Of a stretch of 64,000 bases of DNA, positions 55,335 through 57,031 are shown one piece after another; the first letter of the stretch is position 1, and each line of letters starts with the position of its first letter. A program made the translations under genes and the position numbers. The notes under the pieces are model-generated. The model saw only the letters and a list, made by a program, of their open reading frames with translations, was not told where the DNA came from and searched no databases. Origin of the DNA: Sphingomonadales bacterium (lineage in GTDB: Bacteria > Bacteroidota > Bacteroidia > NS11-12g > UBA955); NCBI GenBank assembly GCA_016872175.1, contig VHBA01000003.1:790-64789 (forward strand), written 5' to 3'.

Positions 55335-56447
55335 ATGGAACAGTATATCGTATCAGCACGCAAGTATCGTCCTACCCACTTTGACGCCGTGGTAGGGCAG
55401 AAGCACGTTGCCGATACACTGATGCGCGAAATTGAAAGCAATAAGCTGGCCCAGGCATTTCTCTTTACCGGCCCCAGGGGTGTGGGCAAAACAACCTGTG
55501 CAAGGATTCTGGCCAAAGTAATAAACAGTATAGACGGAGCTGTAGATCCCAAACAGGATTTTGCCTTCAATATTTTTGAACTCGATGCCGCCAGCAATAA
55601 TTCGGTGGATGATATCCGCAATTTGCAGGAGCAGGTGCGAATTCCACCGCAGGTGGGTAAATACAAGGTGTATATTATTGATGAGGTACACATGCTGTCT
55701 CCCAGTGCCTTCAACGCTTTTTTAAAAACACTGGAAGAACCGCCCTCGTACGCCATTTTTATTCTTGCCACCACCGAAAAACACAAAATACTCCCAACCA
55801 TTCTCAGCCGCTGTCAGGTTTTTAATTTTAACCGGATTGAAGTGCGGGATATGGTAGAACACCTGAAACAAATCGCCGAAAAAGAGGGCGTTTCTGCTGA
55901 GGAAGATGCCCTGCATTTGATTGCCAGAAAAGCAGACGGTGGCTTGCGCGACGCATTGTCTATTTTTGATCAACTGGTTAGCTACAGCGATGGTGGCCTT
56001 ACCTATGCAAAATCCGTAGAGGTTCTGAACGAACTGGATGCAGATACCTATTTCGAGATTACAGATTCCATACTGAAAGGCGATTCAGGAAGTTGCATAA
56101 TAACGCTGGATAGCATTATCCGTCATGGTTTTGATGGTTCGGTTTTTATAGCCGGACTAACAGCCCATTTCCGCAACCTGGCAGTTTGTAAGGATGTCCG
56201 CACAGCATCATTGCTGGATATGTCTGATAATTTCAGGAAGAAATATGCCGAGCAGGCATCTGATATGGGTTTTTCTCTCATTTTGAATGGATTAAACCTG
56301 CTAAATGAATGCGATGAGAAATATAAAATCAGCCGCCATCCCCGGTTGCTGCTGGAACTGACGCTGATGAAACTCGCAAACCTCAAGTCGTTTATCTCTC
56401 ATGTGGCTACCCTTGAGGAATTAAAAAAAAAAGCCCTGAACCCTTAG
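55335..56447 (+). CDS. dnaX: DNA polymerase III gamma/tau, N-terminal part (gamma, 370 aa)
   Basis: ARKYRP, GPRGVGKTT, ELDAASNNSVDDIR, IIDEVHML, TILSRC. Confidence 0.97.
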   Translation: MEQYIVSARKYRPTHFDAVVGQKHVADTLMREIESNKLAQAFLFTGPRGVGKTTCARILAKVINSIDGAVDPKQDFAFNIFELDAASNNSVDDIRNLQEQVRIPPQVGKYKVYIIDEVHMLSPSAFNAFLKTLEEPPSYAIFILATTEKHKILPTILSRCQVFNFNRIEVRDMVEHLKQIAEKEGVSAEEDALHLIARKADGGLRDALSIFDQLVSYSDGGLTYAKSVEVLNELDADTYFEITDSILKGDSGSCIITLDSIIRHGFDGSVFIAGLTAHFRNLAVCKDVRTASLLDMSDNFRKKYAEQASDMGFSLILNGLNLLNECDEKYKISRHPRLLLELTLMKLANLKSFISHVATLEELKKKALNP

Positions 56448-56457
56448 CCAAGGGTCA
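56423..56457 (+). other. Candidate recoding signal: A10 run plus downstream stem-loop
   Basis: TTA AAA AAA AAA GCC C, then TG(A)ACCCTT-AGCC-AAGGGTCA hairpin (56437-56457) containing the 0-frame TAG. Confidence 0.7.
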
Positions 56458-57031
56458 AAATCAGGCACCGCCTAAGCAGCCCGAATCCACAGAAAAGCTT
56501 ACTGTCAAAGTGCATGAATCCAGGATTCAGTTATCGGGATTTGAGGAATACAAGCAAAAGAAACAGGAAGACAGAAACTCTGCCATCAAAGAAGATAAAA
56601 CGGTCGAAACCAACATAATTCAATCGGAAATCGCCTATGATGAACCTCCGCAGGAGGAACAAAAAGTTGCCGATCCGGCGCCTGTAAGTCAGGAAATGCT
56701 CACGCAATATTGGATTGAATTTAGCCATACCGCCGGTGTCAGGGCCTCCAGTCTCATGAAAGCCATTATCCCCGAATTGCAAAGCAATGAAGTGGTTGTT
56801 ACCATTGCTTCCGCTGCTCAGCAGGATGCTATTGAAGATGTGCGAATGAACTTTATACATTTTGTTACCCAAAAAACGAATGGTGTAATACAATCATTGC
56901 GCATTGAGAAAGGTGCGGCTGAAATAACCGACCGAAAACCCTATACAGAAAAGGAAAAACTGGAGTTTATGCTGTCAAAGAATCCAGAGTGGAAAGAGAT
57001 GATTGAGAAGTTGGGGCTGAGGCTGCCATAA
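56423..57031 (+). CDS. dnaX: DnaX tau C-terminal part in the -1 frame, probably reached by recoding
   Basis: The -1 frame is open from the A10 run (56423-56432) to TAA 57031. It encodes a P/Q/E-rich linker and ends YTEKEKLEFMLSKNP...KLGL, like Bacteroidota tau C-termini. Confidence 0.8.
   Translation, partial: KKKSPEPLAKGQNQAPPKQPESTEKLTVKVHESRIQLSGFEEYKQKKQEDRNSAIKEDKTVETNIIQSEIAYDEPPQEEQKVADPAPVSQEMLTQYWIEFSHTAGVRASSLMKAIIPELQSNEVVVTIASAAQQDAIEDVRMNFIHFVTQKTNGVIQSLRIEKGAAEITDRKPYTEKEKLEFMLSKNPEWKEMIEKLGLRLP

Follow-up and report, generated by a model that had tools for sequence, protein, structure and literature searches.

We analysed the dnaX gene in a 64,000-nucleotide (nt) stretch of DNA, hereafter the window, from an uncultured lake Bacteroidia genome deposited as Sphingomonadales bacterium (assembly GCA_016872175.1, contig VHBA01000003.1, positions 790 to 64,789). 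The gene is laid out in two reading frames that overlap at a run of ten adenines (A10). Plain transcription and translation would give the short gamma form of DnaX, and tau, the form that links polymerase and helicase to the clamp loader, would arise when the reading frame is moved by -1 at the run. From the conservation of the run and the arrangement of the frames around it, we consider it probable that tau is made mainly through slippage of RNA polymerase at A10, in the manner of Thermus.

Two reading frames of one dnaX gene meet at an A10 tract

The first open reading frame (ORF1, frame 0) lies on the forward strand at 55335-56447, starts with ATG at 55335 and ends with TAG at 56445-56447, encoding 370 amino acids (aa) that correspond to the gamma-type DnaX domains I-III. 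It matches the Pfam families DNA_pol3_delta2 (6.9e-37), DNAX_ATPase_lid (6.1e-16), and DNA_pol3_gamma3 (4.1e-8), the NCBIfam model TIGR02397 dnaX_nterm (1.1e-115), and positions 1-365 of the 614 positions of NF011531 (DNA polymerase III subunit gamma/tau). Its 3' end reads ...GAG GAA TTA AAA AAA AAA GCC CTG AAC CCT TAG. The A10 tract, the candidate slip site, occupies 56423-56432 (+). Its first base is the third base of the TTA codon, so that two A_AAA_AAA heptamers stand in frame, and the first non-A base after it is a G at codon position 1. The frame-0 TAG lies four codons past the tract, and a TGA in the +1 frame (56437-56439, +) lies one codon past it. The -1 frame is closed by a TGA at 56414-56416, is open from 56417 through the tract to the stop at 57029-57031, and encodes, from 56432 to 57031 (+), 199 aa plus the stop, comprising the predicted tau linker and C-terminal domain. 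Joining 366 aa of frame 0 to 199 aa of the -1 frame gives a 565-aa protein in which ...LKKK is followed directly by SPEPLAK. Close to the tract are a GAGG (56415-56418, +) within the Glu-Glu codons, 4 nt on its 5' side, and a stem-loop (56437-56457, +) with a 6-bp stem pairing 56440-56445 with 56450-56455 and two outer pairs across a bulge. An earlier note on this DNA had listed frame 0, the A10 run, the -1 frame, the 565-aa junction, the GAGG, and the stem, and all of them are present where it had placed them.

Beyond ORF1, the -1-frame piece matches NF011531 at positions 423-613 (E 3.8e-10). A tblastn search with this piece places the homologue in the -1 frame in relatives whose first ORF is short; in relatives whose dnaX is unsplit (551-640 aa), it shares the frame of the N-terminal region. 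A profile built from the final 122 residues of 101 orthologues gives weak matches to PDB sequences, namely a PolC N-terminal domain (4.9e-5), DnaA domain I (5.6e-4), and the DnaX gamma/tau chain 4iqj_M (0.015). These three are known to be structurally related to tau domain V, 4IQJ being the Thermus aquaticus alpha-tau complex. The conserved C-terminal domain of 122 aa, encoded at 56663-57028 (+), is probably of the tau domain V type. Within the genus, conservation of the -1-frame protein sets in with the codon that directly follows the run (SPEP...). Judged from sequence, the two ORFs are one dnaX gene, since they are colinear on NF011531, show this tblastn frame pattern, and end in a domain with these profile matches. 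The proposal of the earlier note that gamma would be made by plain decoding and tau through recoding at A10 is supported.

A Pfam scan of ORF2 found no family. The ESM Atlas gives DUF8439 (PF28557) as a lead for the C-terminal piece and, weakly, PF12170 DNA_pol3_tau_5 (22% of one cluster, rank 15). The clusters that contain the piece hold stand-alone Bacteroidota proteins of ~130 aa, named DUF8439 or 'hypothetical', and much of the DUF8439 family may be second halves of split dnaX genes that have been mis-annotated.

The tract is conserved at the gamma/tau boundary of relatives

To place the layout among relatives, we used three samples. Within the order, 40 relatives were searched and 29 dnaX loci obtained, one of which (L014) is cut by a contig end, leaving 28 complete loci. 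A search of 400 genomes across the phylum gave 398 with a match, and the class sample comprises all 97 same-class matches listed. An independent sample of 80 loci from named Bacteroidia includes Flavobacterium, Pedobacter, Chryseobacterium, Chitinophagaceae, Cytophagales, and Bacteroidales.

In the order sample, gamma is in frame in 17 of the 28 complete loci and tau in 11. In all 17 gamma-in-frame loci the first ORF encodes 362-371 aa and the run is exactly A10, located 18-25 nt 5' of the stop. Gamma is likewise in frame in 38 of the 97 class matches listed, and every one of these carries a poly-A tract directly before the frame-0 stop (A10 in 34, A11 in 4); in 37 of them the -1 frame stays open over 190-251 codons, and the remaining locus, L056, has an open +1 frame instead. 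Taken together with the window gene, 56/56 loci with gamma in frame in the order and class samples carry the tract, with A10 in 52 and A11 in 4, and the shift needed is -1 in 55 and +1 in one (L056). Among the 80 named Bacteroidia, gamma is in frame in 23 (21 requiring -1 and two requiring +1), with run lengths of A10 in 20, A12 in two, and A9 in one; tau is in frame with the tract in 45, and in 12 there is no run of 8 or more. Isolate genomes of Flavobacterium quisquiliarum, F. denitrificans, and F. psychrotolerans (L153, L165, L175) are among those that combine A10 with tau in the -1 frame. The expectation of the earlier note that the break would be conserved rather than unique is thus borne out by the gamma-in-frame loci of all three samples, and an A10 or A11 stands at the site in all 55 such loci other than the window's own in the order and class samples.

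The tract is also found in orthologues that need no recoding to make tau. An A9-A11 run stands at the same place (..EELKKK..) in 10/11 tau-in-frame loci of the order sample and 47/59 of the class matches listed, 57/70 together. The 47 class tracts are A9 in 10, A10 in 32, and A11 in five, and the other 12 class loci have A8 (four), A7 (one), or no run of 7 or more (seven). Elsewhere in the phylum, 18 of the 30 genomes sampled from other classes have an A9 or A10 run in the searched span, with tau in frame in 17 of these (in one case the run lies ~200 nt further on) and gamma in frame in L218. The tract is present independently of the split and looks like a class-wide slip site. Relatives differ in which product frame 0 encodes, while the run has been kept. 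Within one family, A10 loci with tau in frame (L077, L079, L082, L088) differ from A10 loci with gamma in frame (L035 and others) by an indel of one base outside the run, and within one genus L086, with A11, has tau in frame, which its A10 relatives do not. The tau-in-frame orthologues with A9-A11 look like slippage genes of the Thermus type, and standard annotation would not flag them.

The occurrence of an A10 run is by itself unremarkable in the window genome, where A/T runs of length 10 number four in 2.26 Mb (~6 expected from composition) and none is longer; the weight lies in its conservation at the orthologous site. The run in dnaX is the only one of these 10-nt A/T runs deep inside a long ORF. 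The same genome has other A9/T9 runs far inside long ORFs (997, 411, and 258 codons), at the contig positions C53:6312-6320, C46:1653-1661 and 1986-1994, and C42:5553-5561, and these runs may be additional slippage-prone sites.

Some loci depart from the common pattern. The opposite (+1) shift is needed in L056 (genome G231), where A10 is directly followed by TAG, in L133, with A10, and in L164 (Flavobacterium sp. YO12), with A9. The flanks of L164 are those of its A10 relatives, so its shorter run may reflect either real loss of one A or a sequencing error. In Chryseobacterium ginsenosidimutans, two strains (L184 and L193) have the same A10 and near-identical flanks and differ in frame assignment; the N-terminal match of L184 stops at residue 316, which suggests a second, upstream indel in that assembly. 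In two Bacteroidales loci the first ORF is short (383 aa in L194, 376 aa in L271) and the +1 frame encodes the C-terminal domain, and no A run of 8 or more and no obvious slippery site was found at the break.

Frames that do not lead to tau are closed soon after the tract

We compared how quickly each frame closes after the tract, using the same off-frame across domains I-III as control. In the gamma-in-frame loci (n=55), frame 0 reaches a stop 1-7 codons after the tract in 55/55 and within 6 codons in 54/55, and the +1 frame is closed within 6 codons in 52/55 (control 34%). In the tau-in-frame loci with the tract (n=57), the -1 frame is closed within 6 codons in 57/57 (control 43%) and the +1 frame in 51/57 (control 35%). 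By this comparison, the rapid closure of every non-tau frame is the pattern of Thermus as summarised by Baranov (2005) and Atkins et al. (2016).

No conserved frameshift stimulator surrounds the tract

The earlier note had proposed a cassette of A10 plus hairpin, with the GAGG just upstream as a further signal. The window hairpin has a minimum free energy of -13 kcal/mol (z = -1.56); of 200 dinucleotide shuffles, 19 form a structure no less stable. In a genus alignment of 11 sequences, the consensus energy is -0.85 kcal/mol, with no stem downstream of the run and 0 covarying pairs. Across the 55 loci with gamma in frame, folding of the 45 nt that follow the run has a mean z of -0.15 (median 0.07), and the 45 nt before it, scanned for an upstream nascent-RNA hairpin, give a mean z of -0.67, nothing clear. 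We therefore reject the stem-loop at 56437-56457 as a functional stimulator, as it folds at chance level and is not conserved even within the genus.

Shine-Dalgarno (SD)-like 4-mers occur within 20 nt upstream in 33/55 loci, nearly all at -4 to -9 and inside conserved Glu or Gly codons. An E. coli-type SD-like stimulator is spaced ~10 nt upstream. The GAGG of the window lies 4 nt before the run and is part of the conserved Glu-Glu-Leu codons, and it is rejected as a stimulator as well. The window gene contains neither an in-frame A_AAA_AAG, nor a correctly spaced SD-like element, nor a conserved stem-loop. The base after the run is G in 44/55 gamma-in-frame loci, and A_AAA_AAG stands in frame in 18/55, the window's not among them. 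Of the signals that the earlier note had proposed, those of the E. coli type are not supported.

Relation to known recoding systems

The layout found here has been known since 2013, and the window gene comes from an additional species. Antonov, Coakley, Atkins, Baranov, and Borodovsky (2013, Nucleic Acids Research) describe two-ORF dnaX in which the DNA itself carries the -1 break, in 17 genes of 12 genera; poly-A tracts (range A7-A10) are present in 12 of the 17 genes and A10 in nine. In their account, tau requires recoding, and transcriptional realignment is proposed by analogy with Thermus; Atkins et al. (2016) repeat this account. The window gene shares with those genes the gamma-length frame-0 ORF, the poly-A at its end, the -1 ORF with the tau C-terminus, and the conserved break, and differs in nothing essential, being from a further species of uncultured lake Bacteroidia. 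The 'reversed logic' that the earlier note saw in this gene is therefore present as a layout, but it is not new. Our literature searches for experimental work on slippage in the dnaX of Bacteroidetes or Flavobacteria returned only Antonov et al. (2013). We found no description of the tract in tau-in-frame genes of the phylum in a search that reached few subscription titles, and Atkins et al. (2016) imply the point. A 2025 bioRxiv preprint on frameshifting mentions no dnaX other than that of E. coli.

In Thermus thermophilus dnaX (Larsen et al. 2000, as cited by Baranov 2005 and Atkins et al. 2016), RNA polymerase slippage yields mRNAs in all three frames. Both genes have a run of at least 9 As at the gamma/tau boundary and nearby stops in the non-tau frames. 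However, Thermus has A9 with tau in frame 0, so that slippage makes gamma, whereas the window gene has A10 with gamma in frame 0 and slippage would have to make the essential tau; 57 relatives in the order and class samples keep tau in frame with the same tract. E. coli dnaX uses a -1 programmed ribosomal frameshift at A_AAA_AAG with an upstream SD-like element and a downstream stem-loop. The window's dnaX shares with it the boundary between domain III and the tau extension, the slippery stretch of Lys codons, and the -1 direction, but E. coli has tau in frame 0, and the window's dnaX has A_AAA_AAA with no conserved stem-loop or well-spaced SD-like element. A further parallel is Shigella flexneri mxiE, for which Baranov (2005) describes an untemplated nucleotide added at a homopolymer during transcription as required for the longer functional product. 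The two have in common two overlapping ORFs, a homopolymer, and one added nucleotide; mxiE differs in encoding a transcription activator, in using a T run, and in that its longer product is no essential replication protein.

Slippage of RNA polymerase as the probable source of tau

If RNA polymerase slips on the tract, it would produce a population of mRNAs with 9, 10, 11, 12, or other numbers of As. Transcripts with A11 (also A8 or A14) would bring the linker and C-terminal domain into frame and encode the 565-aa tau. Those with one A fewer or two more (A9 or A12) would end at the TGA one codon past the tract, and those with A10 at the TAG four codons past it, in either case giving a gamma-length protein; the 370-aa gamma from A10 would comprise clamp-loader domains I-III without the polymerase-binding part. 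The expected masses are ~41 kDa for gamma and ~63 kDa for tau. Tau from A8 or A14 mRNAs would have two or four Lys at the junction, and gamma from A9 or A12 would end in ...KKKP or ...KKKKP. A ribosomal -1 slip on A_AAA_AAA may add to the tau yield.

We also weighed rival explanations of the break. That the true run is A11 and the break a homopolymer assembly or sequencing error, or that the gene is a decaying pseudogene, might be suspected, as the window genome is a metagenome-assembled draft in 91 contigs and A10 is a classic error site. The dnaX stretch is present in 20 lake or freshwater DNA sequencing runs, and contigs that span the gene in three of them (X18 and X19 of one study, X20 of another, both studies other than the possible source) differ from it by 6, 4, and 16 substitutions, respectively, and by no gap. 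These gap-free contigs speak against an assembly error, and a stronger argument is that an identical break and run length occur in dozens of species, isolate genomes among them; stops are moreover kept in both other frames, and both parts are conserved at the protein level. Of A10 and A11, the alternatives raised by the earlier note, the contigs of all three runs show A10, and error or decay is very unlikely, the least probable of the readings considered here. Homopolymers of 10 are prone to replication slippage, and run length could also vary in the DNA of the population, as in a phase-variation-like switch, with A11 cells making tau directly. One-A differences with the same flanks do occur, as in L086 (A11 within an A10 genus) and L164 (A9). 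However, exactly A10 is found in 52/56 gamma-in-frame species and in the three other assemblies from two studies, although contigs cannot reveal minor variants. Since tau is reported as the essential DnaX form in a 2022 bioRxiv preprint, a gamma-only majority would be inviable without recoding, and we regard such a switch as improbable. Equally small is the chance we give to two separate genes, with ORF2 translated alone into a free-standing C-terminal protein. The GTG at 56510, which the earlier note had named as a possible start, and the stand-alone ~130-aa proteins grouped with the C-terminal piece by the ESM Atlas would fit, but the latter are probably annotation products of this very split, and the Val at GTG 56510 is Ile in L015, so this GTG is not a conserved start. 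In the 55 loci, 15-201 codons (median ~98) separate the run from the first -1-frame ATG, which often falls within the conserved domain. The -1 frame is open from the run in 55/55, and protein conservation begins at the run. The 57 A9-A11 orthologues with tau in frame continue past the tract in frame 0 with this sequence, as one unbroken gene. Independent translation of ORF2 is unlikely on this evidence.

The more serious alternative, which we consider possible but doubtful, is that the mRNA is faithful to the DNA and tau arises mainly by -1 ribosomal frameshifting, with tandem slippage of tRNA-Lys on A_AAA_AAA. It would be served by the two in-frame heptamers in the run, by the need for exactly -1 in 55/56 gamma-in-frame loci, by the G that commonly follows the run and the A_AAA_AAG in frame in 18/55, and by the precedent of E. 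coli dnaX, which shifts this way (Antonov et al. 2013; Atkins et al. 2016). Against it, the sequence downstream is not conserved as a structure, whether over the 55 loci, within the genus, or in the window's own hairpin, and SD-like motifs occur only 4-9 nt upstream within conserved codons. In E. coli, A_AAA_AAA is far less shift-prone than A_AAA_AAG according to Atkins et al. (2016). A heptamer needs seven As, but the run is kept at 10-11; the unused +1 frame is closed at once too; and three orthologues need the opposite direction. We favour RNA polymerase slippage over an E. coli-type cassette because no stimulator is conserved or significant, because the opposite shift in L056, L133, and L164 is within reach of slippage and not of a -1 frameshift, because the non-tau frames are closed fast and the run stays A10 while the layout changes within families, and because transcriptional realignment is what Antonov et al. 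(2013) proposed for their nine A10 genes. The sequences show the split, the conserved tract, the stops in both other frames, and the colinearity of the two ORFs with full-length DnaX; slippage itself, its level (RNA polymerase or ribosome), and its proportion are our inference. Several points weigh against polymerase slippage. Any run of 9 or more As also contains an in-frame -1 slippery heptamer, the product of an A11 mRNA and that of a -1 frameshift are identical in sequence, and the in-frame A_AAA_AAG in 18/55 loci makes a ribosomal contribution possible. No RNA run was among those listed in a search of sequencing runs for the dnaX stretch. The comparison with X18, X19, and X20 was made on contigs, in which minor A-run variants in the DNA are invisible, and the genomes compared are kin, so that the counts, which are descriptive and carry no tests, overstate independent support. 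Polymerase slippage also presupposes that RNA polymerases of this phylum slip efficiently on A10.

An in-frame TAG at the same boundary in a Bacteroidales family

A different layout is seen in 15 uncultured Bacteroidales genomes of a gut and rumen family (L161, L191, L197, and L253-L264), whose dnaX lacks a poly-A tract. Here frame 0 encodes 365-388 aa up to an in-frame TAG that falls precisely on the gamma/tau boundary; beyond it, the same frame encodes the tau linker and C-terminal domain over 178-254 codons, with C-terminal profile scores of 29-64. The context is conserved as TAG AT(T/A) GCN AG(A/G), read as '*IAR..', followed by a GC-rich conserved stretch. In a sample of the family, 13 of 99 matches, the starting genome counted, have one TAG inside the match. 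The layout suggests that tau is made by reading through the stop codon, or else that the gene is split. Searching the literature for stop-codon readthrough in dnaX, we found nothing relevant among the matches listed, judged by title and the start of the abstract.

Implications

Because of the split layout, annotation pipelines give a truncated dnaX and a 'hypothetical protein' (the DUF8439 lead) in many Bacteroidia, and in the window the annotation should be corrected to one gene with two products. The wider survey suggests that the tract is a phylum-wide feature. We see evenly balanced chances that an A9-A11 tract is an ancestral and nearly universal Bacteroidota device for making both DnaX forms. 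Such a device would yield either form at about even odds, which would be why the product in frame 0 has been swapped repeatedly, even within one genus, at unchanged run length. The window gene would then represent one state of this device, and the gut and rumen Bacteroidales family with TAG a third device, pointing to readthrough. In the window gene, an essential replication protein would rely on a deliberate 'error' of RNA polymerase or ribosome, and the tau:gamma ratio would be set without a regulator.

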